Assembly (NCBI GenBank): GCA_046350775.1
Contig: JAXLZS010000001.1
Location: 156,379-220,378 of the forward strand
DNA length: 64,000 nucleotides
From: Minisyncoccota bacterium
Lineage (GTDB): Bacteria > Patescibacteriota > Minisyncoccia > Phycocordibacterales > UBA5272
Reading direction: 5' to 3'
Shown here: positions 487 through 63,666 of the stretch, piece by piece
How positions within the stretch are numbered: the first letter of the stretch is position 1
Layout: each line of letters begins with the position of its first letter
The notes under the pieces: generated by a model
Told to the model about the DNA's origin: nothing
The model's input: only the letters and a program-made list of their open reading frames with translations
Databases searched by the model: none
Program-made: the position numbers and the translations under genes

Positions 487-960
487 TTACTCTATCAATT
501 TGGTCTTTATCTTTAACCATAAAAAATAAAAAATCAAAGTCTTTGTAGAATTTTCATATATAATTCCAAACGTACTTCTCATTTCATTTTTTTTACACTG
601 TCCTATAGCAATACCAACAAAAGAAACCAAATCTCCTTCAGCATTACCTATAGCAATGCCAACAATAGAAAACAAATCTCTTTCAGCATTACCTATAGTA
701 ATACCAACAAGAGAAGTCAAATCTCTTTTAGCATTACCTATAGCAATACCAACAAAAGAAACCAAATCTTTTCCGGCTTTACCTATGACAAGGCCAACTA
801 AAGTAATATACTTGTACTGATATGCCAAAGCAAAAAAGAGTACAAGTGCTGGAAATAGCCAAAAGTTTAAATTATACTTTTGGACTACATAATAAAATCC
901 CCAAGTAAGTAATACAGAAAATAATACCTGTATATCTTTCAATAAATTTGATTTTCTCAT
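487..960 (-). CDS. small membrane protein with 2 N-terminal TM helices and 4-5 tandem 15-aa glycine-zipper-like repeats (VGIAIGNAxxDLxSx)
   Basis: ORF translation. The repeats GIAIGNAKRDLTSLV / GITIGNAERDLFSIV / GIAIGNAEGDLVSFV are encoded by 45-bp DNA tandem repeats. Confidence 0.45.
   Translation of the reverse strand: MRKSNLLKDIQVLFSVLLTWGFYYVVQKYNLNFWLFPALVLFFALAYQYKYITLVGLVIGKAGKDLVSFVGIAIGNAKRDLTSLVGITIGNAERDLFSIVGIAIGNAEGDLVSFVGIAIGQCKKNEMRSTFGIIYENSTKTLIFYFLWLKIKTKLIE
603..798. repeat. in-frame 45-bp tandem repeat, 4 full units plus 1 partial, inside the 487..960 gene
   Basis: Direct reading: ctatagcaataccaacaaaagaaaccaaatctccttcagcattac reiterated with point differences. Confidence 0.8.
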
Positions 961-1031: not shown

Positions 1032-1049
1032 TTGTCAAGTCTTAAAAAT
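1032..1049 (+). promoter_or_regulatory. conserved upstream motif TTGTCAAGTCTTAAAAAT (prfB); candidate promoter -35 region or regulator site
   Basis: Near-identical 18-mer also at 18044 (serS) and 21522 (dnaX). Core TTGTCAAG found at several other upstream regions. Confidence 0.55.
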
Positions 1050-3749: not shown

Positions 3750-6104
3750 ATGTTATCAAAATCATCACAAAGAGTTTTTCTTTTTGTATCACTTTTTCTA
3801 GGGCTGTTTAGTTTGTCTTATTTTTCTTTCTTTAAAATTCCTTTTATCTTAAAATATTTATCAATAGATGCTGAAAAAAGTTTTATTTTTAGCATAGTGA
3901 GTCTTTTGTCAATTATTTCTTTTTATATTTATTTGATAATGAAAAAACAAATAAGTCTTCCTGAAAATAAATATGTAAAATGGTTGTTTATTGCTACTCC
4001 AGTAGCGATCCTACTGTCCTCTTTATTTTCTGGTAGTTTATCTGTTTCTTTTTTTGGTAAATATATCTCAATTCAAAATGCCGCATCATTCTTATCTATC
4101 GCTTTTCTGGTTTATATTTTATCTGCTTATCTTAAAAAGTTTAAAAGATTTGCCTGGACAGTTTTTATGGTTAGTAATTTTTTATTGACCTTACCAGTAA
4201 TATTGGCGGTACTTTTTTCAAAGTTCAATCTATTCAATATTGCCAACAAATTGGTCATTTTTGTAGATAATTGGGACACTGTCGCTATAATCTCCAGCAC
4301 TCTTTTAATAGTCACTCTAGTATACTTCGAGACAATAGCTTTTTCCAGAAAGCAAAAAATAATATCTGCCAGCATAATTTTTATACATCTAATTTTAATT
4401 ATTTGCATAATAATTCCAGATATTTGGTACGCTTTAGCATTTTCTTCTCTAGGTATCTTACTTATCTCCTTGTTTACTGACAGATCAAAAAATCAAAAAA
4501 TTAATATTTATAAAAAACTTTCTTTATATGTCTTTATAATATCAATATTTTTCGCACTGGCTTTTACTATACAAAATAGTAAAATACAAAATTTCTCTAA
4601 AAAAATAATTAATTTTACAGAAAAATATTCTGGTATTCATTACAATTTTGTTAAACCAAAATTGGGTATAAGTCTAGATCTTGGATTTACAGAATTGAGA
4701 AAGGGTAAAATATTTGGATCTGGTCCAGCTAGCTTTGACAGTGTCTGGCAAAAAGAAAAACCAGATTCAGTGATCGCTTCATCTTATTGGAATACTACTT
4801 TTACATCATCATATTCGGCTTTTACTACATTACTAGTAACTCTGGGAATAGTAGGGATATTGTTGCTTTTATTAATCATAGTCACAATATTTATCAGTAT
4901 TATTAAAAGCCTAAAAAAAGATTCAGAAAATTCTTATCTTGGACATGACGATGAGGATAGATTTTATTTCATATCATCGGTCGCTTTATTTATATTTAGT
5001 ACCACATCAATGTTTGTATTTACAAATATAGTCATATCTATAATAATATTCTCTTTATCTGTAGCTTTTGTGACATCAAATACGACAACATGGAAAGACA
5101 AAGAATCTACAAAATTAATTAATGGTATATTTTTATCTATCTTAATTATAGCCTTACTCGGAACATTGATTTCTATTAATAGAGTCAGAAGTACTTCTGT
5201 GTCATTGAGAGCAATAAATAATTATCAAATCGACAATGATATATCTAAATTGGAATCCGGACTTAGAAAAGCCGCTAGACTATCAGGAGATGATAATGAT
5301 TATAGAACTTTAACTCAATTCTATATATATAAAGCGGGAAGAATTTTAAATTCTACACCTGCGACTTCTACTGCAAATGAATTACAAAAAAATATTTTAG
5401 ATTCTGTAAATGAGGCCATCTCATCAGCAAATACGGCTATAAATATAGACAATCAAAATTATAATAATTATATAACCTTGGGATCTGTTTATAATTTTTT
5501 GATGTCTATAGGAGGGCAAAATAGAGACTCTTATTATCAAAAAGCAAAGGATAATTATTCTAAAGCTTTAAATCTTTACCCTAAAGATCCATCTACTTCT
5601 TTAACTATGGCCAGCTTAGAATATTCTTACAATCAAAACGCTACTACTACACTAGAAAATATAAAAAGGGCCCTAAATATAAAACCAAATTTTTCTACAG
5701 CATATTATGTCTTATCGCAATTAGCGGTACAATATAATGACAGAAATTCAGCAATACAATACGCTGCCCAAGCTATCCAGACAGATCCTAAAAATATAGA
5801 AGCCTATATGCAATATGGCATCTTGGTATTAAATAAAAAAGATTTGAATCAAGATGATTTAAATCAAGCATATTCAGCTTTTATGTCTGTGTTAAATATT
5901 GATCCAAATAATGTGACTGCTGCTTATTATTTATCTATCACATATATATTGGCGAAAGATTTTGATCATGCTCAATCATTGATCAATATATTACAAAAAG
6001 TATTGCCAAATGACCAAAAAATTAAAGATTTACAATCTTTCTTAAACACACAAAAAAATGGAGTGCCTACAGCCTCAACAACTAAAAAAACTATTAAAAA
6101 ATAG
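3750..6104 (+). CDS. large polytopic membrane protein (more than 10 TM helices) with C-terminal TPR-like repeats; possibly O-antigen-ligase/glycosyltransferase-like
   Basis: Hydrophobic N-terminal ~450 aa. The C-terminus carries repeated YxxAxxxYxKALNLxP-type TPR signatures. Confidence 0.45.
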   Translation: MLSKSSQRVFLFVSLFLGLFSLSYFSFFKIPFILKYLSIDAEKSFIFSIVSLLSIISFYIYLIMKKQISLPENKYVKWLFIATPVAILLSSLFSGSLSVSFFGKYISIQNAASFLSIAFLVYILSAYLKKFKRFAWTVFMVSNFLLTLPVILAVLFSKFNLFNIANKLVIFVDNWDTVAIISSTLLIVTLVYFETIAFSRKQKIISASIIFIHLILIICIIIPDIWYALAFSSLGILLISLFTDRSKNQKINIYKKLSLYVFIISIFFALAFTIQNSKIQNFSKKIINFTEKYSGIHYNFVKPKLGISLDLGFTELRKGKIFGSGPASFDSVWQKEKPDSVIASSYWNTTFTSSYSAFTTLLVTLGIVGILLLLLIIVTIFISIIKSLKKDSENSYLGHDDEDRFYFISSVALFIFSTTSMFVFTNIVISIIIFSLSVAFVTSNTTTWKDKESTKLINGIFLSILIIALLGTLISINRVRSTSVSLRAINNYQIDNDISKLESGLRKAARLSGDDNDYRTLTQFYIYKAGRILNSTPATSTANELQKNILDSVNEAISSANTAINIDNQNYNNYITLGSVYNFLMSIGGQNRDSYYQKAKDNYSKALNLYPKDPSTSLTMASLEYSYNQNATTTLENIKRALNIKPNFSTAYYVLSQLAVQYNDRNSAIQYAAQAIQTDPKNIEAYMQYGILVLNKKDLNQDDLNQAYSAFMSVLNIDPNNVTAAYYLSITYILAKDFDHAQSLINILQKVLPNDQKIKDLQSFLNTQKNGVPTASTTKKTIKK

Positions 6105-6149: not shown

Positions 6150-6175
6150 ATTATTTCATGATATAATCAAAAAAT

Positions 6176-7192
6176 ATGAAAGAAAAAAAAGTTTTGGTAT
6201 CTGGTGTCCAATCTAGCGGGCAGCTACATATCGGAAATTATTTCGGAGCTATCAAGCAAATGGTCGACCTTGTAAACACAGGAGAGTATGAATCTTATAT
6301 ATTCTTAGCCGATTATCACTCAATGACGTCTCTTACAAATAGAGAAGAAAGGCTAAAAAATACTTTCGAGAGTGTCGCTAGTTATTTGGCGTGCGGACTT
6401 AATCCTAAAAAAGTAAATATTTTTAAACAAAGCGATGTAAAACAAGTGACAGAACTTGCTTGGATATTAAATACAGTGACTCCAATACCCATGCTATTTT
6501 TATCTCATGCATTTAAAGATAAAAAAGAAAGCGATGTAGAAAAAATGAAGGATGTAAATGTCGGACTTTTTGATTATCCTGTACTCATGGCGGCGGATAT
6601 ATTAATTTATAATGCAGATGTGGTACCAGTTGGTAAAGATCAAGAGCAACACATAGAATACACAAGAGATATAGCTGGAAAATATAATAGAGCTTATAAT
6701 GTAAATACTTTTAAATCTCCAAAAAGTTATTCAGTAAAAGGTATGGAGACAGTTTTAGGTGTTGATGGTAATAAAATGGCCAAAAGTAAAGGTAACCAAA
6801 TATCAATGTTTGCGCCAGAAGAAGAAATAAAAAAGAAAGTAATGAGTATCACAACAGACAGCAAACTCCCAAATGAAATAAAGAATCCTGACGAAAATAA
6901 TATTTATAAAATTCATAAATTATTCTTAAATAAAGAAGAAGATAGATTGTTAAGAGAAAAATTTGAAAATAGCGACAAAATTCCTTACGGATATAAAGAG
7001 GCAAAAGAAGATTTGTTAAAGACTATACTTTCATATTTTAAAGATATGAGAAAAAAATATGAATATTATACGAGCACAACAAAAGGCAAAAAGGAAGTGA
7101 TGTCAGTCATGAAAAATGGGACTAAAAAAGCAAACAAAAAAGCTGAAGAAATGATGAAGAAAGTTAGAAAAGAAGTTGGTCTTGATTTTTAA
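6176..7192 (+). CDS. trpS: tryptophanyl-tRNA synthetase
   Basis: Class I HIGH motif (GQLHIGNYFGA) and KMSKS variant (KMAKSKGN). TrpRS-typical VLVSGVQSSG N-terminus. Confidence 0.85.
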   Translation: MKEKKVLVSGVQSSGQLHIGNYFGAIKQMVDLVNTGEYESYIFLADYHSMTSLTNREERLKNTFESVASYLACGLNPKKVNIFKQSDVKQVTELAWILNTVTPIPMLFLSHAFKDKKESDVEKMKDVNVGLFDYPVLMAADILIYNADVVPVGKDQEQHIEYTRDIAGKYNRAYNVNTFKSPKSYSVKGMETVLGVDGNKMAKSKGNQISMFAPEEEIKKKVMSITTDSKLPNEIKNPDENNIYKIHKLFLNKEEDRLLREKFENSDKIPYGYKEAKEDLLKTILSYFKDMRKKYEYYTSTTKGKKEVMSVMKNGTKKANKKAEEMMKKVRKEVGLDF

Positions 7193-8545: not shown

Positions 8546-8575
8546 ATTTTATCTTATATGATATAATTTAAAATT

Positions 8576-9319
8576 ATGTCAGAGATATTTAATGTAAATC
8601 TAGAACGCTTTTCTGGACCATATTTTAAGCTTTTAGAAATGATTGAAGAAAGAAAACTTTCTATCAACGAGTTTTCTTTATCTCAAATCACAGATGATTA
8701 TATATCTTATATAAAAGAGCTAGAAAATAAAGGCCGAAAAGACATAGTCGATATTTCTCAATTTATTTCTGTGGCTTCTACTCTTATGCTTATAAAAGCA
8801 AAATCATTATTTCCAAATCTTGAATACACAGAAGAAGAAAAAGAGGCCGTCAGTAATCTAGAAAAAAAACTAGAACTTTATAAAATAATGATGGAAGCCA
8901 CAAAAAATATCAATAAAAATTATAATAAAAAAATCATGTCTTCTATTTCTAAATTTGAAAATGAAGAGTCAGTTTTTGTTTGGGATGATAGATTAAATAC
9001 AAATTTACTACATTCTATTTCTATAGCATCTTTACTTAAAATACCTAAAAAAGAAAAACTAAAACAAGTTGCTGTAAGACAAGTCTTAAAAATAGAAGAT
9101 GTCATCGAGACATTATTAGAAAGAGTTAAAAAAAGTTTGAGTCTTTCATTTAAAGAATTTTCTAGCTCTATGTCTAATGAAGCAAAAAATTTTGAAGAAA
9201 AAAAATCTGCTTTTATAGTATCATTTTTAGCTATGTTAGAACTTATTAAAAATGGTTTACTGAATGCTGATCAGACTGGTGATCACAATGAGATACGCAT
9301 CTCCAATATAAGTAAATAA
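8576..9319 (+). CDS. scpA: segregation and condensation protein A
   Basis: N-terminal FSGPYFKLLEMIEERKLSINEFSLSQITDDYISYI matches the ScpA kleisin N-terminus. It is followed by scpB. Confidence 0.7.
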   Translation: MSEIFNVNLERFSGPYFKLLEMIEERKLSINEFSLSQITDDYISYIKELENKGRKDIVDISQFISVASTLMLIKAKSLFPNLEYTEEEKEAVSNLEKKLELYKIMMEATKNINKNYNKKIMSSISKFENEESVFVWDDRLNTNLLHSISIASLLKIPKKEKLKQVAVRQVLKIEDVIETLLERVKKSLSLSFKEFSSSMSNEAKNFEEKKSAFIVSFLAMLELIKNGLLNADQTGDHNEIRISNISK

Positions 9320-10923: not shown

Positions 10924-11007
10924 TCAATTTTCGTCAATATTTTAAAGAAAATTTTACGTGTTATAATCAAATAATTATAAGAATAATAACATTTATCAAT
11001 AATTAAT

Positions 11008-13285: not shown

Positions 13286-14299
13286 ATGTCTATTTTTATT
13301 AAAAAACTCGGTATAGATTTGGGTACAGAGAATACTCTTGTTTATGTTCCTGATAGAGGGATTGTGGTAAATGAACCATCTGTAGTAGCTATTTCTAAAG
13401 ATGAAAATAAAATATTAGCTATTGGAAACAAAGCAAAAGAAATGATAGGAAAAACCCCGGACGCTATTATAGCTTACAAGCCAATGCGTGATGGCGTGAT
13501 AGCAGACTATAAAGTCACAGAGATAATGTTGAAATACTACATAGACAAAGCTCTGCCAAAATTTAATATTTTCAAACCTGAAATAATGGTCTCTGTACCA
13601 AGTGGAGTCACGAGCACAGAAAGAAGATCGGTGATTGAAGTGACTGTAAAAGCTGGTGCAAAAAATGCTTATGTAGTAAAAGAGCCTGTATTAGCAGCTA
13701 TAGGTGCAGGGATACCAATTCATGAAGCTAGAGGAAGAATAATAGTAGACATTGGGGGAGGAACAACGGATGTGGCCGTGATATCTCTTGGAGGTATAGT
13801 GTGTGCCAACTCTATAAAATGTGCCGGAAATAAAATAGATAAAGCCATAATAGATTATATGAAAAAGGTTCACAATCTGATAATTGGAGACCAAACTGCT
13901 GAAGAAATGAAAATCCAGATCGGATCAGCTTTGCCTTTAGAAGAAGAATTATCAATGAATGTCAAAGGTAGAGATTCTCAGTCTGGCCTTCCAACAACAA
14001 TAGAAATAAAAACAAATGAAATCACCAAAGCTATAGACAAAGAACTCAAACAAATAATCTCAGCAATAAAAACAGTGCTTCAAGAGACTCCACCAGAATT
14101 ATCAAGAGATATAATAGATAATGGGATTATAATGAGTGGAGGATCTTCAATGTTGCGCCATTTCCCTGTATTGGTAGAGAGAAGGACAGGAGTAAAAGCG
14201 GAAGTGGCCACTGATCCTATTTTTTGTGTATCAAAAGGTACAGGTCACGCACTATCTCATCTTGATGTATACAAGAAATCAATTTTAGCAAAAAGATAA
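13286..14299 (+). CDS. mreB: rod-shape-determining actin homologue MreB
   Basis: GIDLGTENTLVY phosphate-1 motif and DIGGGTTD phosphate-2 motif. Confidence 0.9.
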   Translation: MSIFIKKLGIDLGTENTLVYVPDRGIVVNEPSVVAISKDENKILAIGNKAKEMIGKTPDAIIAYKPMRDGVIADYKVTEIMLKYYIDKALPKFNIFKPEIMVSVPSGVTSTERRSVIEVTVKAGAKNAYVVKEPVLAAIGAGIPIHEARGRIIVDIGGGTTDVAVISLGGIVCANSIKCAGNKIDKAIIDYMKKVHNLIIGDQTAEEMKIQIGSALPLEEELSMNVKGRDSQSGLPTTIEIKTNEITKAIDKELKQIISAIKTVLQETPPELSRDIIDNGIIMSGGSSMLRHFPVLVERRTGVKAEVATDPIFCVSKGTGHALSHLDVYKKSILAKR

Positions 14300-15689: not shown

Positions 15690-16871
15690 ATGACTATTAT
15701 AATTTTTATCATAATATTATTAGTCTTAGTCTTGATACATGAAGCTGGTCATTTTTTTGCAGCAAAATTATCAGGAGTCAGAGTAGACGAATTTGCTTTT
15801 GGATTTCCGCCAAAGCTTTATTCTATAAAAAAAGGAGAGACTAATTATGTCTTTAACGCTTTACCACTAGGAGGATATGTAAAGATCTTTGGAGAAAATG
15901 GAGATAAAAATTCTAACGATTTAAATAAAAAAGAATTAAAAGACGAGACAAATTTTGTAAACAAAAATCCTTTTATAAAAATATTTATATTAGCGGCTGG
16001 AGTAATAATGAATTTTGTCTTGGCTTATTTATTGATAACTGCCTCATTTTATATTGGGACCACATTCCAAATTGACAGAAATAGTTCTGAATATAAAAAA
16101 TTTTCTAGTGAAGGAAGAATAAGGAGTGAATACATTGTAATATCTCAGGTTGTAAATAATTCTCCAGCCAAAAATGCTGGACTAACTCCAGGATTGAAAA
16201 TAGAAAAGATTTATCTAAATCAAGAAAGCTCTGTCGGTAAAGTAGCCTCAAAACAATCTGTGGATTTACGTAAAAATGGAGATGAAGTAGCTCAAAATAT
16301 TTCAGAAAAATTGAATTCTGGTGATGCTGACTCTATCACTATAATCTATCTAAATAAAAAAGGTGTAGAAGAGACTACCACGATATCTGGAGTATACGGT
16401 CTAGATGGTAATACAGAAAAAAGATTAACCGGGCTATCTTTTACAAAATTTGCCATCGTAAATCTATCTATACCAGAAACTATCACAACTGGATATAAAA
16501 ATACAATGATGATAACTAAGGGCACATTAGTAGGATTTAAGGATTTATTTTTAAATTTATTTAAAAAAGGAGAAATATCTAGTGAAATCTCTGGTCCAGT
16601 AGGCATATTTAATATGGTGGCCCAAGCTAGTCAATTTGGTTTTAGCTATGTACTTCTTTTTGCTGCAATACTGTCTATATCACTAGCAATATTTAACATA
16701 CTACCTTTTCCAGCTTTAGATGGAGGAAGAATACTATTTGTGATTATAGAGTCTATTACTCACAAAAAAATATCTGAAAAATGGCAAACCATATTAAATG
16801 GTATAGGATTTATAATATTGATACTACTAATGATAGTAGTATCTGTAAGAGATATAATGAAATTTTTCTAG
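15690..16871 (+). CDS. rseP: site-2 protease RseP (M50 zinc metalloprotease with PDZ domain)
   Basis: HEAGHF HExxH motif in TM1 and LDG motif (PALDGGR) near the C-terminus. Confidence 0.8.
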   Translation: MTIIIFIIILLVLVLIHEAGHFFAAKLSGVRVDEFAFGFPPKLYSIKKGETNYVFNALPLGGYVKIFGENGDKNSNDLNKKELKDETNFVNKNPFIKIFILAAGVIMNFVLAYLLITASFYIGTTFQIDRNSSEYKKFSSEGRIRSEYIVISQVVNNSPAKNAGLTPGLKIEKIYLNQESSVGKVASKQSVDLRKNGDEVAQNISEKLNSGDADSITIIYLNKKGVEETTTISGVYGLDGNTEKRLTGLSFTKFAIVNLSIPETITTGYKNTMMITKGTLVGFKDLFLNLFKKGEISSEISGPVGIFNMVAQASQFGFSYVLLFAAILSISLAIFNILPFPALDGGRILFVIIESITHKKISEKWQTILNGIGFIILILLMIVVSVRDIMKFF

Positions 16872-16910: not shown

Positions 16911-18029
16911 ATGAAAATAATTTTAACTGGAGCCGGAGGAGGACACTTTTACCCTTTAATAGCTGTAGCTGAAAGAGTAAAAAAAGAAGCGGTCGACGAA
17001 AAGATAATCGACACTGAAATATTTTTCTTATCAGACAAACCATATAATCAGGATCTGCTAAAAAGTAAAAATATAGAATTTATAAAAATACCAGCTGGAA
17101 AAATGAGGCTCTATTTTTCTTTAGATAATTTTTTTGATCCTATAAAATCTTTTTTTGGATTTTTTGTGGCTCTTTATCATGTGTTTAAAATATATCCAGA
17201 TGTCGTCTTTACAAAGGGGGGATACGCCAGTATTCCAGTACTTTTTGCCGCCAAAGTTTTATTTATACCAATCTTTATGCACGAAAGTGATTCTGCTCCT
17301 GGTAAAAGTAATTTGCTAGCCGGAAAGTTTTCAAAAAGAATCGCGACCAGCTATGTTTCAGCTGTAAAATATTTTAATCCAAAAAAGACAGCTTATACAG
17401 GCCAACCAATAATGGAAGAATATCTGCCTACTAAAGAAATATTAGAAAAGAAGAAAAGTAATTTTGACTCTGATTCTAGAAAAACTATATTTATACAAGG
17501 GGCTTCACAAGGTAGCGAAACTATAAATAATATAGTATTAGAATCTTTACCTGAATTATTGGAGAAATATAATGTTATTCATCAGACAGGCGATCTACAT
17601 GTGAACAATATCAAAATAGCTAGTGAATTATTATTAAAAAATAATCCAAACAGAGAAAATTATTATTTCTTTGGCTCTGGAGATTTAAGCAAATATTATG
17701 AGTCCGCAGATCTGATAATTTCTAGAGCAGGATCATCTCTTTTTGAATTTGCAGCCTGGGGTATACCTTCAATCGTCATACCAATCACAATTAGCAATAA
17801 AAACCATCAAATGCTAAATGCATATACTTTTGAAAAAGCTGGCTGCTCTCTAGTCATAGAAGAGGCGAATTTAAAAAAGAATTTATTATTAAATAATATA
17901 AATCAAATTTTAGAAAATAAAGACAAATACAATCAAATGAGAACTGCCAATTTAAATTCATTTAAATCTGGTGCTGCAGAGACCATTGCAAAAGAGATTG
18001 TAAAAATTGGTTTGTCACACAATTATTAA
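16911..18029 (+). CDS. murG: undecaprenyldiphospho-muramoylpentapeptide beta-N-acetylglucosaminyltransferase
   Basis: N-terminal LTGAGGGHFYPLIAVA G-loop. GT28 C-terminal domain. Confidence 0.8.
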   Translation: MKIILTGAGGGHFYPLIAVAERVKKEAVDEKIIDTEIFFLSDKPYNQDLLKSKNIEFIKIPAGKMRLYFSLDNFFDPIKSFFGFFVALYHVFKIYPDVVFTKGGYASIPVLFAAKVLFIPIFMHESDSAPGKSNLLAGKFSKRIATSYVSAVKYFNPKKTAYTGQPIMEEYLPTKEILEKKKSNFDSDSRKTIFIQGASQGSETINNIVLESLPELLEKYNVIHQTGDLHVNNIKIASELLLKNNPNRENYYFFGSGDLSKYYESADLIISRAGSSLFEFAAWGIPSIVIPITISNKNHQMLNAYTFEKAGCSLVIEEANLKKNLLLNNINQILENKDKYNQMRTANLNSFKSGAAETIAKEIVKIGLSHNY

Positions 18030-18043
18030 AATAAAATATAATA

Positions 18044-18061
18044 TTGTCAAGTCTTAAAAAT
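18044..18061 (+). promoter_or_regulatory. same motif upstream of serS
   Basis: ttgtcaagtcttaaaaat. Confidence 0.55.
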
Positions 18062-18115
18062 CCTTATTTTATGATATTATTTTATTATTAACAATATATA
18101 AAACTTTATAAACTT

Positions 18116-19399
18116 ATGCTTGATATTAAATTCATCAGGGAAAATTCTGATCTCATAAAAATGGCAGCTTCTAAAAAACATTTATCTTTTAATGTCGATG
18201 AGCTAATTGAAGTAGATAAAAAGAGAATTGATCTACTTCAAAAAGTAGAAGATCTAAGAGCAAAACAAAACTCAGTCTCTATTGAAATTCCAAAAGCTGC
18301 TCCAGAAGACAAAGCTAAAAAAATAGAAGAAATGAGTGTTGTAAAAAATGAGCTTAAAGATCTAGAGACAGAATTAGATAAAATCATGGAGTCTTGGAGA
18401 AATCTAATGCTAAAAGTACCAAATGTTCCAGATATGTCAGTACCAGAGGGAGATACTGACGCAGACAATCAAGAAGTGAAAAAATGGGGCAATCCAAAAA
18501 CTGAAAATGAATTTGGATTTAAGCCAAAAGATCATATTGAGATCATGGAGGGACAAGACTGGGTAGATTTTGAAAGAGGGATAAAAACATCTGGCTTTCG
18601 TGGATATTTCTTAAAAGGAGAAGCTGCACTACTTGATGTGGCTATCTGGCAATACGGGATGCAAAGATGGGGAGAAAAAGGATTTGTGCCAATGCTGGTA
18701 CCATCACTAGTAAAAAAAGAGACCTTGCTAGGATCTGGATATCTTCCTCAAGGACAAGATGACCTTTATAATGACATCGACGGTGACTATTTTGCAGGTA
18801 CTGGTGAAGTAGCTACAATGTATTATCACGCTGGAGAAATTTTAGAAAAAAAAGATTTACCAAAAAAATTTATTTCATTTTCTCCATGTTTTCGTAAAGA
18901 AGCTGGAGCTCATGGAAAAGATACAAAAGGACTTTATCGTGTACATGAATTTATGAAGCTAGAGCAAGTCATACTCTGTGAAGCAAATCATGAAGAATCT
19001 GTAAAATATCACGAGGAACTCACTTTGCACGCCGAAGAAGTGCTAGAGCAATTTAATATACCTTATCATCGTGTGGTCAACTGTGGCGGAGATCTTGGTC
19101 TTGGACAAGTTAAAAAATATGATCTAGAGGCTTGGATGCCAAGCAAAAATAAATATGGAGAGACAAATTCATCATCTTATTTTCATGATTTTCAAACAAG
19201 AAGACTCAATATCAGATATCGTGACGATGATGGTAAACTAAAATTTGTACACTCACTCAATAATACAGCGATAGCTACACCAAGACTCTTGCTCATGATA
19301 ATAGAAAATTATCAAAATTCTGATGGTACAGTCACAGTACCAGAGGCTCTGGTACCTCTCATGGGTGGCAAAAAAATAATCGGTAAACCAATCTTCTAA
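18116..19399 (+). CDS. serS: seryl-tRNA synthetase
   Basis: MLDIKFIREN N-terminus, coiled-coil arm, and class II motifs (FRKEAGAHGKDTKGLYRVHEF; GETNSSSYF). Confidence 0.9.
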   Translation: MLDIKFIRENSDLIKMAASKKHLSFNVDELIEVDKKRIDLLQKVEDLRAKQNSVSIEIPKAAPEDKAKKIEEMSVVKNELKDLETELDKIMESWRNLMLKVPNVPDMSVPEGDTDADNQEVKKWGNPKTENEFGFKPKDHIEIMEGQDWVDFERGIKTSGFRGYFLKGEAALLDVAIWQYGMQRWGEKGFVPMLVPSLVKKETLLGSGYLPQGQDDLYNDIDGDYFAGTGEVATMYYHAGEILEKKDLPKKFISFSPCFRKEAGAHGKDTKGLYRVHEFMKLEQVILCEANHEESVKYHEELTLHAEEVLEQFNIPYHRVVNCGGDLGLGQVKKYDLEAWMPSKNKYGETNSSSYFHDFQTRRLNIRYRDDDGKLKFVHSLNNTAIATPRLLLMIIENYQNSDGTVTVPEALVPLMGGKKIIGKPIF

Positions 19400-21090: not shown

Positions 21091-21453
21091 TTAGATTAAA
21101 TATTTAAAGACTAAATAGCCTATAAACATTAAAATCCACGGAACACAAAGTATTAAAAACAATTGCTCTAAATTGTTTTTAATATTATCAGTTATTTTTT
21201 GATTATCTTTAACATCAACATCTTCAATTTCTTTCTTGAGAAGAAAAGAGATGTTGATATTTACAATCAATAAAATAAATAAACCAATGCCCACAAGTGC
21301 ATTTTTATAAACCAACTCCGGTTGTGGCATATTTTTAAAAACTGGTGCCAAAAACCAATCGAAATAGCTCGATATTACACATTTCCAGCTAAAAGCCGAT
21401 ATTGGTAAATATAAAAAGAAGATGATTAAAAATGAAATTATATTCTTTTTCAT
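21091..21453 (-). CDS. hypothetical small membrane protein
   Basis: ORF with 3 predicted TM helices. Confidence 0.35.
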   Translation of the reverse strand: MKKNIISFLIIFFLYLPISAFSWKCVISSYFDWFLAPVFKNMPQPELVYKNALVGIGLFILLIVNINISFLLKKEIEDVDVKDNQKITDNIKNNLEQLFLILCVPWILMFIGYLVFKYLI

Positions 21454-21521: not shown

Positions 21522-21539
21522 TAGTCAAGTCTTAAAAAT
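21522..21539 (+). promoter_or_regulatory. same motif upstream of dnaX (TAGTCAAGTCTTAAAAAT)
   Basis: Direct reading. Confidence 0.55.
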
Positions 21540-21569
21540 ATCTCATTTTTATAATATAATTTTATCTAT

Positions 21570-24835: not shown

Positions 24836-24874
24836 ATTTGATATATAATATTAAAATATTATCACAAAATCCCC

Positions 24875-24892
24875 TTTTTTCAGACTTGACAA
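24875..24892 (-). promoter_or_regulatory. same motif upstream of gltX (TTGTCAAGTCTGAAAAAA on the - strand)
   Basis: Direct reading. Confidence 0.5.
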
Positions 24893-24961: not shown

Positions 24962-25207
24962 ATGAAAAAGTATGTTTATCAAATCAGTTGTGACTTTTAC
25001 TTAAAAAAAAGAAATGAAAATGGCTACATCTCGGTAATTTCAGGGTTTGTACAAAAAGAAGATGAACCAAATGAATCTTTTTTTGGCCAACGACTTCCTA
25101 AAGAAATCGAGGCTCATTTAGTAAAAAGTATCGGGAAGAAATCTTCTGACGAAACTCTAAAAACAGGAGATGTTGATTTAAAATATAATATCAACAAACT
25201 TAATTAA
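24962..25207 (+). CDS. hypothetical small protein
   Basis: ORF only. Confidence 0.25.
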   Translation: MKKYVYQISCDFYLKKRNENGYISVISGFVQKEDEPNESFFGQRLPKEIEAHLVKSIGKKSSDETLKTGDVDLKYNINKLN

Positions 25208-27173: not shown

Positions 27174-27202
27174 TATTTAATATAATAATACATTTTTGTA
27201 TT

Positions 27203-27220
27203 TTTAGAAAGACTTGACAA
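27203..27220 (-). promoter_or_regulatory. same motif upstream of sufB (TTGTCAAGTCTTTCTAAA)
   Basis: Direct reading. Confidence 0.5.
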
Positions 27221-28489: not shown

Positions 28490-28540
28490 AAAATAAATAT
28501 TATAATATTTAATTATTTTATCTTATTTTTCAATATATAC

Positions 28541-28553
28541 AAATACTTGACAA
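28541..28553 (-). promoter_or_regulatory. motif core upstream of proS (TTGTCAAGTATTT)
   Basis: Direct reading. Confidence 0.45.
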
Positions 28554-28620: not shown

Positions 28621-29175
28621 ATGACAAATAAAACAGATTCTTTTTTAAGCTTTAATGATGGTTATCTTTTTGAGACTTTAATGAAAAGGCTTACAGACAA
28701 AGAAGTATTTAAAAAGGTAATAGATGAAGGAATAATCAAAATAGATTTTGAATCTCTCAAGTTTTTTTTACAGAAGGAAATCGGATTTATATTTTATGAT
28801 CGTAGTCCATTAATTTTACCAGAAGACATGATAATGTACCCTGCTTATTCATTATTGTTGCTAGATACATATCTGTTTAAAATTAAATTACCGGCAACAA
28901 AAGAGGAAATAGAATCTCAATTCTTGAAAAGACACCTAGTATTTCCTCCTTATGGTCTAGTTAACGTTTTGGAACAAATACCAGATCAAAAGCTATATGA
29001 GAAAAGATTTTTAAGTATTGGAAAATATCCAAAAGCTGGATTGTTTTATAGTTTAATTAATTTCAGCGAAAATGGATCAGGGTCTCATAGCAGCGAATTT
29101 GTCGGCACCATCAAAATCCAAGATGGTTATGGTTCAGCAAAAGATACTTGGACCATTGGTGTAAAAGAAACTTAA
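28621..29175 (+). CDS. hypothetical protein
   Basis: ORF with no recognisable motif. Precedes the Pif1-like helicase. Confidence 0.35.
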   Translation: MTNKTDSFLSFNDGYLFETLMKRLTDKEVFKKVIDEGIIKIDFESLKFFLQKEIGFIFYDRSPLILPEDMIMYPAYSLLLLDTYLFKIKLPATKEEIESQFLKRHLVFPPYGLVNVLEQIPDQKLYEKRFLSIGKYPKAGLFYSLINFSENGSGSHSSEFVGTIKIQDGYGSAKDTWTIGVKET

Positions 29176-32065: not shown

Positions 32066-32335
32066 TTACATAGCTTTCAGATCTTCTTCAAAACCATCGA
32101 TGTCTTTTCCTATATCCTCAAGAAGTTTCATATTAATTGCATGACTATCATTAATTAATTTAGACTCTTCCCTTGTAAGTTCATCGATTCTTTTTAATTC
32201 TTCATCTGTGTTGTATTTCTTTGTCATCAAAGGTAGTAATTCTTTACGCAAAGATTCTAATTTTTTATTAGTTTCTTCTTGTTGAACAAGTAAAGCATCC
32301 AAATTTTTATTAAAATTATCCATTGAGACTGGCAT
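32066..32335 (-). CDS. small coiled-coil protein lying between the AddA-like gene and the nuclease gene
   Basis: 89-aa charged helical ORF. Confidence 0.35.
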   Translation of the reverse strand: MPVSMDNFNKNLDALLVQQEETNKKLESLRKELLPLMTKKYNTDEELKRIDELTREESKLINDSHAINMKLLEDIGKDIDGFEEDLKAM

Positions 32336-37430: not shown

Positions 37431-37538
37431 TTTTACGGGTTTTAAAGTACAAAAAAATATTTGACAACATTAAATATATAATATTTAATAAATAAATGCA
37501 AATAAAAAACTCCGAGCACTTTAGCTAAACTCGGAGTT

Positions 37539-38289: not shown

Positions 38290-38340
38290 ATTTTATAGAG
38301 AAATACTTTAAAATACTTAATAATTATATAACAAAAAACT

Positions 38341-39330: not shown

Positions 39331-39369
39331 ATTTTTAAAAATTATAACAAAAAATCCACAATTAATAAA

Positions 39370-39398
39370 TTGACAAAACTCTTTAATTTTTATAGTAT
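39370..39398 (+). promoter_or_regulatory. sigma70-type promoter (TTGACA-17-TAGTAT) for the 39454 gene
   Basis: Direct reading of the -35 and -10 hexamers with a 17-nt spacer. Confidence 0.5.
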
Positions 39399-39453: not shown

Positions 39454-39750
39454 ATGGGAAACGATCAGGAAAAAGTAAGGCTGCTTACTATGATAGCAGC
39501 TTTTAAATCTTTAAACGATAATCCAAACATGAAAAGCTATCTTGCGCAAGCTTGTTCAGCAATCTCTGACAATGAGATAAAATATGTAGAAAACAGGATA
39601 AAAGAAATCCAGGAAAAATGTCCGCACAATGGAAACAAGATTATCGAATCAAATTTTTCTATTGTCGAACTGAGATTCAAGCAAAAATGCTGCCTCTGTG
39701 GGCACGTGATAAAAGATGAGATCACCATGAAAGAATTGCTTGAATTGTGA
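39454..39750 (+). CDS. small zinc-finger-like protein (Cys4)
   Basis: CPHNGNK...CCLCGHV. Confidence 0.35.
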   Translation: MGNDQEKVRLLTMIAAFKSLNDNPNMKSYLAQACSAISDNEIKYVENRIKEIQEKCPHNGNKIIESNFSIVELRFKQKCCLCGHVIKDEITMKELLEL

Positions 39751-41059: not shown

Positions 41060-41140
41060 AATTAAATATATTTATGGATAAATTATAGCATAATATTTTC
41101 AGTGAGATTTTATTAGGTTTTTATGCTAAAATAGAAAAAT

Positions 41141-46470: not shown

Positions 46471-46740
46471 TCATTTTTTATTTCCCTTTGGAATTATTAT
46501 GGGTTTTGAATAATGTAAATCGGATTCATACCGAATAATATTCAAAACTTTTGCTTTTTTACTGCCGACAAAAACTCTTTTATTTATCTGAGAAAAAGAC
46601 AAAATGTCTTCTCTTGATAAACTGACTTGTCTTCCACAGAATACACATTTTATGATTTTTGAATTTTCTTTATCAAGAAGAATGTGTCCTGACTCCGTCT
46701 GACAAACAGGGCAAATATGCGTAAATTTTTTTTCCGCCAT
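46471..46740 (-). CDS. small zinc-ribbon protein
   Basis: CPVCQTE...CVFCGRQV. Confidence 0.4.
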   Translation of the reverse strand: MAEKKFTHICPVCQTESGHILLDKENSKIIKCVFCGRQVSLSREDILSFSQINKRVFVGSKKAKVLNIIRYESDLHYSKPIIIPKGNKK

Positions 46741-46841: not shown

Positions 46842-47348
46842 TTAATAAATTTCACATCTCTCAAGGAGCTGGAAAAATTCTTTCTTCACATTATTTGTGA
46901 ATTTTTTAATTCTCGCACCATTTTCGAGAGAATCTTTTAATGATTTTAAAGACCTGTCTGGCGGTTGAGACTTCAACGCAAGACCCAGACCAAAATGAGT
47001 CCAGATCTTGTTCTGATCCAAATATACAAGAATCTCGCCGACAGTGTTAGCTTTTATAATCAAAGTTTCCTCAATAAAAGAATAATCAGAGTCCACATTT
47101 TCGGGATCTTTGATCTTAATGGAGGGATAAAACACTCCTTTTTTATGTGATGATTTGTTTATTATTTTCAAAAAATCTTCCTCGGAGATTTTTTGAGTTA
47201 CAGACAGGCAATATTTATCACCCGTTTTTACAAAAGAAATCCTGGACTTCGAGTTGTTCAGAATTCCTGTTTCTCTCAAAAAATCCGTAAAATATTCTGA
47301 TAAAAGATCAGATATTTCGGATCTTGTTTTCGTGATTTCTTCTCCCAT
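46842..47348 (-). CDS. hypothetical protein
   Basis: ORF preceded by a perfect sigma70 promoter. Confidence 0.4.
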   Translation of the reverse strand: MGEEITKTRSEISDLLSEYFTDFLRETGILNNSKSRISFVKTGDKYCLSVTQKISEEDFLKIINKSSHKKGVFYPSIKIKDPENVDSDYSFIEETLIIKANTVGEILVYLDQNKIWTHFGLGLALKSQPPDRSLKSLKDSLENGARIKKFTNNVKKEFFQLLERCEIY

Positions 47349-50006: not shown

Positions 50007-50037
50007 ATTTAGAGATTATAGCATGTAAAATTATGAA

Positions 50038-50750: not shown

Positions 50751-51272
50751 CTATCGAGAGCCAGGTTCGCTGGAAATATATGCTATTGGTCTAGGAACAA
50801 ACAATGTTTGATACCTGAGAGGTATACCCCATTCTTTATCGTAACAACATCCGCAATTCAACTGATGATATTCAAAACCTTCACGGTTTGTATGAATATA
50901 ATCACGAAACTTAAACACTTGCGGAACTTCAGAAGAAGTTTGTGTCACGAAAAGATTGGTTACATACCAATCCAATGCATAAATTTTCCAACCGTGTAAG
51001 GGCACTATTTGCTGAAATCTATATTGTCTTCTACCAAACCATTCCACATTACTATAGCGATCAATAAAATCAGCTACAGATTTTACAGCTACAGGAAATG
51101 AATGAATTACTTCATCTATAATCTGATGGTTATGGTCAAAGAAAAACAATTTTTTGTAGTTCTGATTTCTATATGCTTGAATATTTTTAGCCATATAGTT
51201 TTGATCTCGCAAAAATACCACTGAATTACTTTTCATATAATACAAATAAAAGAACAAAAAATTGCAACACAC
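50751..51272 (-). CDS. hypothetical protein on GC-atypical DNA. The true start is probably an internal ATG (MKSNS... or MAKNIQ...)
   Basis: ORF. The listed start is GTG. A hairpin terminator lies downstream (aggcaag-tatttc-ttgcct plus T-run). Confidence 0.4.
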   Translation of the reverse strand: MCCNFLFFYLYYMKSNSVVFLRDQNYMAKNIQAYRNQNYKKLFFFDHNHQIIDEVIHSFPVAVKSVADFIDRYSNVEWFGRRQYRFQQIVPLHGWKIYALDWYVTNLFVTQTSSEVPQVFKFRDYIHTNREGFEYHQLNCGCCYDKEWGIPLRYQTLFVPRPIAYISSEPGSR

Positions 51273-51830
51273 CCTCTTCTGATATTGCGTCCTTTAACAC
51301 AAAATTAAGAGCGTCGAGTTGTACCTGATTAGTACTTGGTGTCTGGATTTTTCCTCTCCAGTGGAGTTTGTTTTACTAATTCACTTTCATAAACTTATGC
51401 TTCCCACAAGAAATTATTCTAAAGATTCTTATCTTTGCAATTAGACAAGAAATACTTCTTAGAAAATCGCTCCTTATAAAATCCTCTATCATATAGATAG
51501 TTTTTGGATTTTACGAGCGAAAGGAAGGGGTAAATTAGTCGTATTAACTTACAAAATCACTCTCGTAAGTTCAGTAATATCTCTAAAGCCATACAATTAT
51601 CATTTGTCCGTATAAGATAAAGAAAAAGGGCTCTACTTTAAGAGTTTTATTACTACTGCCAAAGAATACGTAAGGCAACTTTAATATTAGGTGTGCCGTT
51701 CAAACCTAATTAGAATGATAGCATAATATAATTTATTTGTCAAGTGTTTTTAGATAAAAATCAAATATTCTTCTTAATATTTGCAAAAAAGTACTGTAAT
51801 ACAAGAATATTTTAGAAGTATAAGGAAAAT

Positions 51831-52235
51831 GAAAATAAAAAACCGTCGCAAAATAATGCGCGACGGCTTTTAATCGGAGCTTTAAGGCAAGATTTTTGTG
51901 GAAAATTGTGCACATTTTTCCAAATTCTTACTCCAACCTACTTCAAGCTTTATGCCACTGAGTGTAAAAAGCTATTTAATTAATAAATTATTTGGCTCCA
52001 TGGCCAAAAATCCATTAAATCATCAGACACATTTTCTTTCGTGTCAGCCCAGATTTGTTAGGGCTCCCCATAGAAGTCGATGGGTATGATTATTTTGCAG
52101 ATAAAGGTGCGGCGGGACATCTTGCCAATCTTGGCACGAAGACTTTTTTCAGTCCAATGCGCCCCGAATCGAATACTAATTGTCATAATAATTACAATAT
52201 TAGCACCAACTATCCATATCTTATCACAAGAAATA
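51831..52235 (+). ncRNA. candidate structured non-coding RNA of unknown class, flanked by ~85-bp direct repeats
   Basis: No credible ORF, elevated GC, a promoter-like TTGTCAAG box upstream, and an internal hairpin at 51843..51866. Short similarities to RNase P RNA conserved blocks (GGGCTCC.ATAG..., AAAGGTGCGG, GGCACGAAGAC) are unconvincing by eye. Confidence 0.15.
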
Positions 52236-52415
52236 TTTTTTGTCAATATCTTTTAACCAAAAATCAAGGATTTTTCTCATAATTCGCAAAAAAGTATTGC
52301 AAAATAAGGATTTTTTAAAGATCTTAATAAAATATTATTTTCCTATTTATTAAAAATTCTATGGAAATATATCGATTTGAAATATTTTTAATTATGTGTT
52401 ATAGTATTAAAGATA

Positions 52416-52610
52416 TTGTACTTTTTTAAATCTTATAAAAAAATCAACATGGGATGGTATTTATTTTTCATTGGTTTACTTTTTTCTGGTATAGGTTTAT
52501 TTTTGCTGGAAAATAAAATTATTAAAACAGTAGGCATAATTTTGGTAGTAATAGCAGCCATAATGATACTCTTAATACTTATTCATGGAATCAGCAAAAG
52601 ACAAAACTAA
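52416..52610 (+). CDS. small membrane protein (2 TM)
   Basis: ORF. The second copy of the duplicated promoter-like block lies upstream, and a terminator follows. Confidence 0.35.
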   Translation: MYFFKSYKKINMGWYLFFIGLLFSGIGLFLLENKIIKTVGIILVVIAAIMILLILIHGISKRQN

Positions 52611-52611
52611 C

Positions 52612-52650
52612 CAAAACCCCGCTCTAATGCGGGGATTGTTTTTTTTATTT
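52612..52650. terminator. bidirectional terminator between the 52416 gene and rpoD
   Basis: ccccgc-tctaat-gcgggg stem followed by TTGTTTTTTTTATTTT. Confidence 0.7.
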
Positions 52651-54089
52651 TAAAAATTCTTTAATCTGTATGCTTTTTCGTGATCACGAATCTTTTCGTG
52701 TACCTTGGCTTCAATCTGACGAATACGCTCACGAGTCACCTGAAATTCTTCTCCCACCTCTTCGAGTGTATGCATGACGCCATTGTATTGTCCGAGTCCA
52801 TTTCTCATTTCTACAATTTTTCTTTCTTTTTCAGACAGATCCATAAGTATTTCATTTATCTGATCTGCTAGAATTCTGCGACTCGCCTCTTGATCAGGAG
52901 AGAGAATCTTGTCGTCTGAGACAAACTCACCAAGTGATGATTTATCATCATCATCTCCTGTTGGCTTTTCAAGCGAAAGAGTCTCTTGATCTATATTTTC
53001 AATGACATGAATCTTTTCTACATCGACACCCATCTCATCAGCTATCTCTTCAGCTAGAGGCTCTCTACCCAAATCTTGAGAAAGTCTTCTGAGGACTTGT
53101 TTGTACTTGGCAATAGTCTCTACCATGTGTACCGGGATACGGATTGTACGAGATTGGTCAGCTAGAGCACGAGTGATACCTTGTCTGATCCACCAACATG
53201 CATAAGTCGAAAACTTATATCCTTTACTAAAGTCATATTTTTCGACAGCTTTAAAGAGTCCGAGATTTCCCTCTTGTATGAGATCAAGCAATGTGAGATT
53301 TGGACTTCTACCTACATATTTTTTTGCAAATGTCACCACAAGACGAAGATTAGCCTTGGCTAATATATTTTTTGCCTCCTCATCCCCCATTTCTATTCTT
53401 TTTGCTAATTCTTTTTCTTCTTCAGAAGAAAGTAGTGGATACTGACCAATTTCTTTTAAATAAATTTGAATACTATCATGATTGGCATCATCTTTTGCAA
53501 GTCTAGCAATGTCTTCATCCATGTCGAGCAAATTACTACCATCAAGAATATCCACTCCCGCGGCTGATAGTTTTTCGTAAAGTTCATCAATAAAAGTAAT
53601 ATCTCTCTCTAGATCGGGAAAAATTTTAATAATATCATCATAAGTTATAAATCCACGCTCTTTACCTTTTTTGATAAGTTCTGCCTCTTTTTCTATTTTT
53701 TCTATTTCATTTTTAGAAAGTTTTGTGACTACTTTTACTTTTTTATTATTATCACGAGCTAATTTAGCTTTATTTTTTTCAATTCTTTTTTGTCTTTCTT
53801 TTTTATCTTTAGCATTTTTTACTTCACGCCTCTTTTTTTCTTCAATTTTTTCTTTAGCACTAAGAGCTTTTAAATTTATAAATTTATTAGATTTTTCTTT
53901 TTCAGAAGAATTCTTTTTGATTATTTTTACTTTTGTCTTTTTGGTTGCCTTTTTAACAATTTTGGATTTTGTTGTGTTCTTCTTTTTTGTAGAAATAGTT
54001 TTTTTAGCTGCTTTTTTTACAGTTTTTACTTTAGTTTTTTTTACTATTTTTTTAACTGATTTCTTTGCTTTTTTAGTGTTTTTTTTCAT
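52650..54089 (-). CDS. rpoD: RNA polymerase sigma-70 factor RpoD with a ~130-aa Lys-rich N-terminal extension
   Basis: Regions 2-4 conserved ([16 protein letters not shown]..., [20 protein letters not shown]). The N-terminus is a poly-K/AKK low-complexity stretch. Confidence 0.9.
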
Positions 54090-56086: not shown

Positions 56087-56125
56087 AATTAACTCTATTC
56101 TATCAAATTTGAGTCTTAATCTAAA

Positions 56126-56137
56126 ATCCTTGACAAA
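56126..56137 (-). promoter_or_regulatory. motif core upstream of dnaG (TTGTCAAGGATT)
   Basis: Direct reading. Confidence 0.45.
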
Positions 56138-56182
56138 TATAATACATTATGCTATATTATATATAGATTGTAATAAACCATA

Positions 56183-63555: not shown

Positions 63556-63654
63556 GACTTGAGTCACCCACAAAACTCAACCTGATGGAATAGAAGATAA
63601 GCCTCGTCAATATTGCATTTAATATATCATGTGCTAGGAAAAAATGCAAGAAAA

Positions 63655-63666
63655 TCTCTTGACAAA
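63655..63666 (-). promoter_or_regulatory. motif core upstream of rpoB (TTTTGTCAAGAG)
   Basis: Direct reading. Confidence 0.45.

Follow-up and report, generated by a model that had tools for sequence, protein, structure and literature searches.

Introduction

In phage lambda, the promoters PR and PRM stand back to back with start sites 82 bp apart. Class II activators such as CRP and FNR bind sites centered at -41.5, and Spx-alphaCTD recognizes AGCA at about -44. Genomes of the Candidate Phyla Radiation are roughly 0.6 Mb and likely encode few regulators. Divergent gene pairs of E. coli are coupled through supercoiling (PMC4469952). Bidirectional promoters share overlapping -10 elements, and their start sites are 7–29 bp apart, 18 bp being the commonest distance (Warman et al., 10.1101/2020.01.31.928960); competition between the two orientations has been proposed for symmetric bidirectional promoters (NAR 2026, PMC12825309). 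For Thermotoga maritima, a strong 'triad' promoter of the form ...TTTTTTTGGAGACTTGACA-17-TAAAAT has been predicted (PMC2412878). A literature search for promoter architecture or promoter motifs in the Candidate Phyla Radiation found no study, and string searches of the literature with the motif described below returned primers and one T. maritima promoter, and nothing else.

Here we analyze an 18-nt element that recurs in a 64,000-nucleotide stretch of DNA (the window) and in its relatives. We lean towards the view that the 18-mer is the junction of two back-to-back -35 regions in a compact promoter node of one Paceibacteria clade. All promoter elements discussed, including start sites, are predictions from sequence.

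Results

An 18-mer recurs upstream of housekeeping genes

The window has 30.9% G+C and is about 90% coding. Two exact copies of TTGTCAAGTCTTAAAAAT were found, at 1032–1049(+) in front of prfB (ATG at 1081) and at 18044–18061(+) in front of serS (ATG at 18116). The dnaX copy, TAGTCAAGTCTTAAAAAT at 21522–21539(+) (ATG at 21570), has one mismatch and the gltX copy, TTGTCAAGTCTGAAAAAA at 24875–24892(-), has two; the sufB copy, TTGTCAAGTCTTTCTAAAAAT at 27200–27220(-), carries a 3-nt insertion. An earlier note on this DNA had reported the recurrence in front of housekeeping genes, which these copies bear out, and Pfam assignments of the downstream genes (RF2-like for prfB, serS, dnaX, gltX, sufB, proS, dnaG and rpoD) agree with the names it had given. 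The distance of 39–75 nt to the gene stated there needs correction: the motif starts 49, 72 and 48 nt before the ATGs of prfB, serS and dnaX, respectively.

When up to three mismatches to the 18-mer were allowed, the window gave seven matches against 0.62 expected, and at least seven were obtained in none of 100 shuffles. Three of the seven (9076, 42025 and 61026) are intragenic and represent chance or coding sequence; the match at 9076 lies within scpA and recurs as coding sequence in the ortholog at L098, one of the related loci described below. The octamer TTGTCAAG is present in 8 copies where 2.7 are expected. All eight are intergenic and none falls in the 57 kb of coding sequence, and no other 8-mer of the window is as enriched in intergenic DNA. 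The view that the element is a DNA-level promoter component rather than a random AT-rich k-mer is supported, its octamer being exclusively intergenic within the window. Motif members account for about 9 of the 45 promoters in the window, a subset, and no further copies were found in the 6 kb scanned beyond its right end. Rfam and tRNA scans of the window gave no matches. A role at the RNA level was dropped because the element lies upstream of the -10s, and for the same reason the discriminator-like role once suggested for it is ruled out.

The conserved core reads as an inverted -35 box

A consensus was built from 12 promoter families (41 instances) in about 12 related Paceibacteria genomes, with GTCAA as the search criterion. 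The family-weighted consensus, TTGTCAAGtcTTwAAAA, is essentially the 18-mer. Positions 3–7 are invariant, and variation is found at positions 1 and 2 (TA, AA, AT, TC) and at position 8 (G, T or C). GTCAA is also invariant among the aligned serS and dnaX orthologs, where it had played no part in the selection. The opposite strand of the octamer reads C-TTGACA-A and so carries a consensus -35 box for sigma70, directed away from the housekeeping gene. Conservation of -35 hexamers is strongest in TTG and in the first five bases. Since GTCAA is invariant and positions 1–2 vary, we read the core as TTGAC on the other strand; the conservation profile is that of a putative inverted -35 box and not of a sense TTGTCA box. 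The earlier comparison of the first six bases with a sense sigma70 -35 box does not survive the same pattern of variable positions 1–2 and invariant GTCAA. A sense TTGTCA acting as a -35 box with a long spacer was also rejected: its spacer to the sense -10 is 24–28 bp and never 16–18 bp, and positions 1–3 are not the conserved ones.

Pairing across TTGTCAAG-T-CTTAAAAA was confined to A/T positions, and the G and C of the left arm lacked a right-arm counterpart in 12 of 12 families. A homodimer palindrome was set aside because there is no dyad or repeat symmetry beyond the A/T positions.

The box keeps a regular distance from the housekeeping -10

The extended -10 (TGnTAnnnT) was used as an anchor to scan the intergenic DNA of ten loci, with coding DNA as the control. 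TTGACA gave 17 of its 22 matches at spacers of 16–18 bp. TTGTCA gave 17 of its 21 at 24–26 bp, including 12 at exactly 25 bp. The two positions were never exchanged, and the coding controls were flat. These separate peaks support the suggestion that at least two promoter classes are present. The spacing between the element and the -10 had been described as irregular; it is instead regular, at 25 or 27 bp, and is kept in the orthologous promoters of relatives.

Three nodes have the 25-bp spacer from octamer to sense -10: serS (extended -10 TGATATTAT at 18072–18080, +), gltX (TGATAATAT at 24856–24864, -) and mraY, where a degenerate inverted box (TCGTCAAT, 10931–10938, +) precedes the extended -10 TGTTATAAT at 10959–10967(+). 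The 27-bp spacer is found at prfB, dnaX and proS, the -10s of which lack TG and are TATAAT or TAAAAT. The prfB-ftsEX -10 TATAAT (1065–1070, +) follows TTGTCA at 27 bp and precedes the ATG by 10 nt. At dnaX, TATAAT is at 21555–21560(+), with a second, overlapping TATAAT at 21550–21555; the distance from -10 to ATG is 9 nt in the window and 6 nt in most orthologs. The proS octamer (28546–28553, -) is followed by TAAAAT at 28515–28520. At sufB, the -10 run TATTATTATATT occupies 27179–27190. The rplI octamer (TTGTCAAT, 39369–39376, -) has a spacer of 24 bp to the extended -10 TGTTATAAT. A TG at -15/-14 followed by TAnnnT was thus found in TGATATTAT of serS, TGATAATAT of gltX, TGTTATAAT of mraY and rplI, and TGATAGAAT of dnaG, and the extended -10s of housekeeping genes are kept in orthologs. 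From -10 to -10, the node measures about 55 bp, and the two predicted start sites are about 74–76 bp apart. The overlapping -10s and closely set start sites of the bidirectional promoters of Warman et al. are not found here.

Some copies listed earlier as sense-type do not fit this geometry. The rpoB octamer (63658–63665, -) follows a terminator-like hairpin, 8 nt upstream of the gene's own promoter TTGCAT-17-TATATT (63644–63649 and 63621–63626, -), and lies about 250 nt ahead of the start codon called in L106. The copy at 37461, assigned to the 37041 gene, has no -10 at the class spacing. The copy at 51737 is an ordinary opposite-strand -35 box: the octamer (51737–51744, +) at the RNA-like locus supplies TTGACA (51738–51743) to a (-) strand promoter with its -10, TGCTATCAT, at 51715–51720 and a spacer of 17 bp. 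For dnaG, the assignment held in part. Its octamer (56129–56136, -), between dnaG and a divergent 76-aa gene, does have a sense -10 (TAGAAT, 56097–56102) at a spacer of 28 bp, but it also belongs to an excellent opposite-strand promoter, TTGACA-17-TGCTATATT (56130–56158, +), which would feed the called 76-aa gene. The dnaG copy is therefore compatible with being either a divergent -35 box or a sense-type member.

The 3' half resembles a weak sense -35 region

Bases 9–18 of the 18-mer (TCTKAAAAAT) form a weak, A-rich segment that resembles a sense -35 box of the housekeeping promoter (TTAAAA or cTGAAA). This promoter is predicted to depend mainly on its -10, which across the 12 families lies 24–27 bp past the octamer and is mostly extended (TGnTAnnAT). 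In prfB and dnaX (-10 at offset 33), TTAAAA stands 17 bp ahead of the -10, at motif positions 11–16 (1042–1047, + strand, inside the prfB 18-mer). An independent scan returned the same promoter at prfB, TTAAAA-17-TATAAT(+), with a score of 10/12. In serS and gltX the -10 is at offset 31, and the G-variant TCTGAAAAA makes the hexamer cTGAAA, 16 bp ahead of the -10; only together with the offset-31 geometry was a G seen at motif position 12. The conservation that the earlier note had taken for a 12-nt extension of a sense -35 box is better accounted for by this weak -35-like segment or A-tract. We therefore think it somewhat probable that the 18-mer joins two -35 regions back to back, with about 3 bp between them. 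The bottom-strand member would be the consensus box, and the top-strand member would be weak and stand before a strong -10, TG-extended in the serS, gltX and mraY group. A tandem promoter that uses the conserved T-tract (nATTTT) as a -10 at 15–17 bp was also tried and rejected: the T-tract follows the downstream -10 and not the octamer, and it is absent at mraY and sufB.

The box serves predicted promoters on the opposite strand

Intergenic TTGACA is about 8-fold enriched in the ten loci, and TAnnnT is found 16–18 bp beyond 42 of 56 intergenic copies compared with 4 of 44 coding copies. The longer string CTTGACA has TAnnnT at this distance in 26 of 32 intergenic copies, the ordinary sigma70 -35/-10 arrangement on the opposite strand. 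At the prfB node, the independent consensus scan called TTGACA-18-TAAAAT(-) with 11/12 and a TG extension (-35 at 1033–1038, -10 at 1009–1014), facing the ORF at 487–960(-). At gltX it called TTGACA-17-TACATT with 10/12, the + strand TTGACA at 24886–24891 facing the ORF at 24962–25207. The opposite-strand TTGACA of the proS node (28547–28552, +) faces the ORF at 28621–29175, and that of rplI, also on the + strand, faces the ORF at 39454–39750. A further divergent small ORF spans 21091–21453, and the 76-aa gene beside dnaG belongs to the same set. Where a -10 lies 17±1 bp past the inverted box, the box is placed as the -35 of a predicted divergent promoter facing a small, variable ORF.

Small divergent ORFs adjoin 6 of the 9 nodes in the window and most nodes of relatives. 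They are absent from the serS, mraY and sufB nodes of the window and from several nodes in relatives. Their identity differs between relatives. A paralogous family of mobile small genes, each with its own promoter, was considered and discarded, as the divergent ORFs are mostly non-homologous. In the relatives' loci, small ORFs without Pfam matches are interspersed on the opposite strand. Some copies have a gene on the opposite-strand side alone, with a terminator lying on the sense side (L096:6061, L099:18433, L091:1888, L104:11883 and window 51737).

In one rival explanation, two fully independent promoters are packed to the steric limit in a streamlined genome, the octamer serves the divergent small-ORF promoter alone, and the constant spacing is a by-product of compaction. 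The layout occurs in 6 of the 9 divergent intergenic regions of the window, the divergent promoters are near-consensus, and the opposite-strand T-tract, AGAC and TTGACA resemble the predicted strong UP/-35/-10 promoter of T. maritima (PMC2412878). Nodes without a divergent gene, considered below, speak against it.

The element is conserved at orthologous promoters

Loci of about 20 kb (L095, L096, L098, L099, L101–L104 and L109) were collected from relatives through DnaX homologs, with DnaX identity ranging from 86% to 52%. They share the gene order murG-serS-x-dus-dnaX-gltX-sufBD-proS, and the element is present at the orthologous serS, dnaX, gltX and sufB promoters in most of these genomes. 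Nine genomes aligned at serS all have TTGTCAA and share a conserved block, ATTTT-TG-A-TATT (TTATTTTRTGATATTATTT in the window), while the 28 columns upstream of the octamer are unconserved. Across nine dnaX promoters GTCAAGT and the -10 are invariant, and the octamer is still there at 52% DnaX identity. The same layout was found at mraY (window 10931; L101–L103), murG (L095, L096, L099) and proS (window, L096, L099), and also at rplI (window 39376), dnaG and a sufD-like gene in L102. The proS octamer is kept in L096, and L099 keeps just the GTCAAG core. The divergent gene at sufB is absent in the window and present in L096, L098 and L099. The comparison with orthologous intergenic regions of related Patescibacteria that the earlier note had recommended thus turned out in favor of its lineage-specific element.

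In public collections, the exact 18-mer was matched at 28 genome-contig loci and 66 metagenome-contig loci, mostly singletons in unrelated taxa, and many of these are ordinary TTGACA promoters seen from the other strand. The Patescibacteria among them are only L006, L016, L021/L034, L022, L038, L091 and L092, a few with loci syntenic to the window. The scatter of exact matches is what a common AT-rich k-mer, a short dispersed repeat or a mobile promoter without positional function would give. The prfB and dnaX copies are also about 80% identical over about 50 nt, and L096 has three copies of a 45-nt module beside the octamer, the sole hint of local duplication. This explanation is nevertheless largely refuted, and we regard it as highly improbable: copies stand at orthologous promoters in about 12 genomes with the spacing to the -10 preserved, the octamer is absent from coding sequence, and no terminal repeats or target duplications were seen. 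The sites at serS, dnaX, gltX, sufB, proS and mraY are syntenic in relatives and do not occupy the variable, non-orthologous positions of a mobile promoter.

The box is retained where no divergent gene exists

At several nodes the element is kept in the sense arrangement only. This is so for serS in the window, L095, L016 and L102; for dnaX in L098, L016, L102 and L109; for mraY in the window, L101, L102 and L103; for sufB in the window; and for gltX in L102. At these nodes the preceding gene runs in the same direction and ends 4–18 nt away, conservation is lacking in the 5' flanks, and most of them have either no divergent -10 or a weak one. At the serS node of the window, for example, murG ends on the same strand at 18029, which leaves no divergent gene. 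The scanner calls TTGACA-17-AATAAT there, and shuffles give 1.5–1.8 promoter-like matches per 130 bp; weak -10s are common by chance in AT-rich DNA, and cryptic divergent transcription may occur at sense-only nodes. Conservation at this depth in a sense-only context implies selection there. Many of the instances are orthologs, and about 12 promoter families of a single clade count as independent evidence.

Two packed but independent promoters do not predict this result. The octamer holds its spacing even with a co-directional gene ending only 4–18 nt upstream, and for mraY, dnaX and serS this retention was found in four genomes each, over 52–86% DnaX identity and with randomized flanks. Packing of independent promoters is accordingly the weaker rival, and we consider it quite unlikely. 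Since the box is retained where no divergent gene exists, it would also serve the housekeeping promoter.

That the element is kept without a divergent gene also fits an operator. A transcription factor dedicated to TTGTCAAGTCTT, acting either as a repressor or as an activator of class II type, could occupy this site at about -45 to -34 and jointly control a set of housekeeping genes (aaRS genes, dnaX, prfB, suf, mraY/murG), the likeness to an inverted -35 box being coincidental or exploited. The fixed position by the -35 region, centered near -41.5 for dnaX and prfB as in class II activators, would fit such a protein. So would the conservation past the octamer in 12 families (T at positions 9, 11 and 12, and the A-run) and the fact that only some promoters have the element (about 9 of 45 in the window, none in a further 6 kb). 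The properties of the core speak against it. The invariant part is just 5 bp and is TTGAC, the specificity of sigma region 4 itself; 26 of 32 copies of the same sequence lie where the -35 box of a divergent promoter would be; dyad or repeat symmetry is lacking beyond the A/T positions; and the distance to the -10 differs by 2–3 bp between families. Among the Pfam-annotated genes of the window, rpoD was the only transcription-factor gene found. When the element was set against consensus sequences for the Pho box, CtsR, Spo0A, IHF, FNR/CRP, CodY and the marbox, the matches were at best to partial half-sites. We retain a dedicated factor, such as the global regulator suggested in the earlier note, as the serious rival and judge it unlikely on the whole.

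Discussion

The architecture is best described as a predicted sigma70-type variant, with an inverted -35 box set a constant distance ahead of a strong -10 that usually carries the TG extension. Beyond its part in divergent promoters, the inverted box may contribute to the housekeeping promoter from about -45 to -38. Because the TTGAC core, at 5 bp, is too short for an autonomous regulator, its reader is taken to be polymerase or a factor of the same specificity; most likely this would be RNA polymerase itself, through sigma region 4. Such a reader could dock beside the weak -35 region, where it would assist recruitment or else compete against binding in the sense orientation, and would in this way set promoter strength. 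The housekeeping partner is constant and the small ORFs turn over, which suggests that the box is primary and that the ORFs exploit it. Small ORFs could come and go by using a pre-existing outward -35 box.

We know of no mechanism by which an inverted -35 hexamer at -45 to -38 assists a promoter. It is possible, and we put it forward only tentatively, that the housekeeping promoters of Patescibacteria (Paceibacteria) possess a genuine upstream element not described before, an inverted consensus -35 at about -45 to -38. Sigma region 4, in the 'wrong' orientation, or a sigma4-like factor would read it. Through recruitment or through competition between orientations, such an element would determine how strong extended -10 promoters are or how they respond to growth rate, and the outward transcription would seed the birth and turnover of small divergent ORFs.

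The promoter grammar of this clade comprises nearly universal extended -10s, frequent leaderless starts and few canonical -35 boxes, together with a recurrent node whose consensus -35 points away from an essential gene and keeps a set distance from it. Should the inverted box modulate the housekeeping promoter, essential genes would be tuned without a regulator, and the accumulation of variable small ORFs opposite conserved genes would have a mechanistic reason. The geometry GTCAA-N23-25-TAnnnT plus TTGACA-17-TAnnnT can be used for better annotation of operons, start sites and start codons in these MAGs.

The opposite strand of the 18-mer matches canonical sigma70 promoters with an A/T-rich, UP-like tract, a consensus -35 and a -10, of which the T. 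maritima 'triad' is an example (PMC2412878). It reads ATTTTTAAGAC-TTGACA-A and is mostly followed by 17±1 bp and TAnnnT. The difference is that the box is also kept at a fixed distance before a second, opposite-facing promoter, even where it has neither a -10 nor a gene of its own. Back-to-back pairs such as lambda PR/PRM and the divergent pairs of E. coli share with these nodes the outward promoters, the adjacent -35 regions and the potential for interference or coupling between two polymerases; the start sites are predicted here to be about 74–76 bp apart. In contrast to those pairs, no operator is evident between the two -35 boxes, only about 3 bp separate them, and about a dozen unrelated housekeeping promoters repeat the same geometry. 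With the bidirectional promoters based on -10 symmetry, the nodes have in common that symmetry in a core element, here TTGnCAA, lets polymerase engage in two orientations; the near-palindromic element is, however, the -35 box, and about 75 bp separate the start sites. Class II sites and the -44 element of Spx are parallels in position, as each is a short cis element at about -45 to -38 that overlaps a poor -35 or directly precedes it. The sequence found here is unrelated to TGTGA-N6-TCACA, TTGAT-N4-ATCAA or AGCA, and it has no dyad symmetry.

Promoter Type and Leader Length

Nearly all promoters in the intergenic regions of the window take the extended −10 form, TGnTAnnnT; examples lie at 6160–6175, 8560–8575, 41125–41140, and 50007–50020. 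No Shine-Dalgarno sequence is visible in any of these intergenic regions. In 12 of the approximately 45 promoters of the window, only 8–10 nt separate the −10 element from the ATG, and among the dnaX orthologs a distance of exactly 6 nt is kept in seven genomes. These features suggest that leaderless or near-leaderless mRNAs are widespread.

The serS and gltX promoters have in common a stretch directly 3′ of the −10 element, TTT-n-AATATTAA, which contains the palindrome AATATT (serS, 18081–18100; gltX, 24836–24855, minus strand) and is conserved in the orthologs of related Paceibacteria genomes (L095–L103). It may be a start-site or leader element common to both aminoacyl-tRNA synthetase genes.

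The sequence AAGACAAGTCTTAAAAAT (9076–9093), which resembles the 18-mer recurring upstream of housekeeping genes, was rejected as a promoter element; it lies within scpA and is kept as coding sequence in the L098 ortholog (16201–16218). RpoD (52650–54089, minus strand; 479 aa) carries a lysine-rich extension of approximately 135 residues N-terminal to region 1.1.

Small ORFs at Divergent Nodes

Near-consensus TTGACA-17-TATAAT promoters are few in the window and mostly precede small ORFs without a Pfam match (487–960, 24962–25207, 32066–32335, 46471–46740, and 46842–47348) rather than housekeeping genes. The small ORFs divergent from serS, dnaX, gltX, sufB, and proS vary in number and sequence among close relatives and are mostly non-homologous (window, 21091–21453 and 24962–25207; L096, 5712–6434, 13379–14555, and 16625–16888; L099, 13487–13750 and 16332–16595). 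By this pattern, small genes seem to be gained and lost especially often at these intergenic nodes. Within L096, a module of approximately 45 nt (ACTRATATAARTATAACATTATWAATATWA) occurs in three copies (6016–6078, 6446–6508, and 13291–13353), each adjoining the octamer that forms the 5′ end of the 18-mer; this module appears to be a divergent-promoter cassette that has been duplicated locally inside one genome.

Other Noncoding Regions

On the minus strand, approximately 1.4 kb (51273–52649) is free of ORFs. This region is higher in G+C, appears structured, and contains two canonical minus-strand promoters (−35 boxes at 51738–51743 and 52241–52246) and a terminator-like hairpin near 51840–51870. 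An Rfam search of the region returned no match at the gathering score and none with a convincing E-value. It is a candidate for one or more unknown noncoding RNAs or, alternatively, for a long leader of the gene at 50751–51272.

A 51-nt intergenic region (38290–38340) separates a 113-aa ORF on the minus strand from rpmA (L27) on the plus strand. It contains the symmetric sequence TTATATAAT and may be a bidirectional promoter with a shared −10 element, of a type that has been described.
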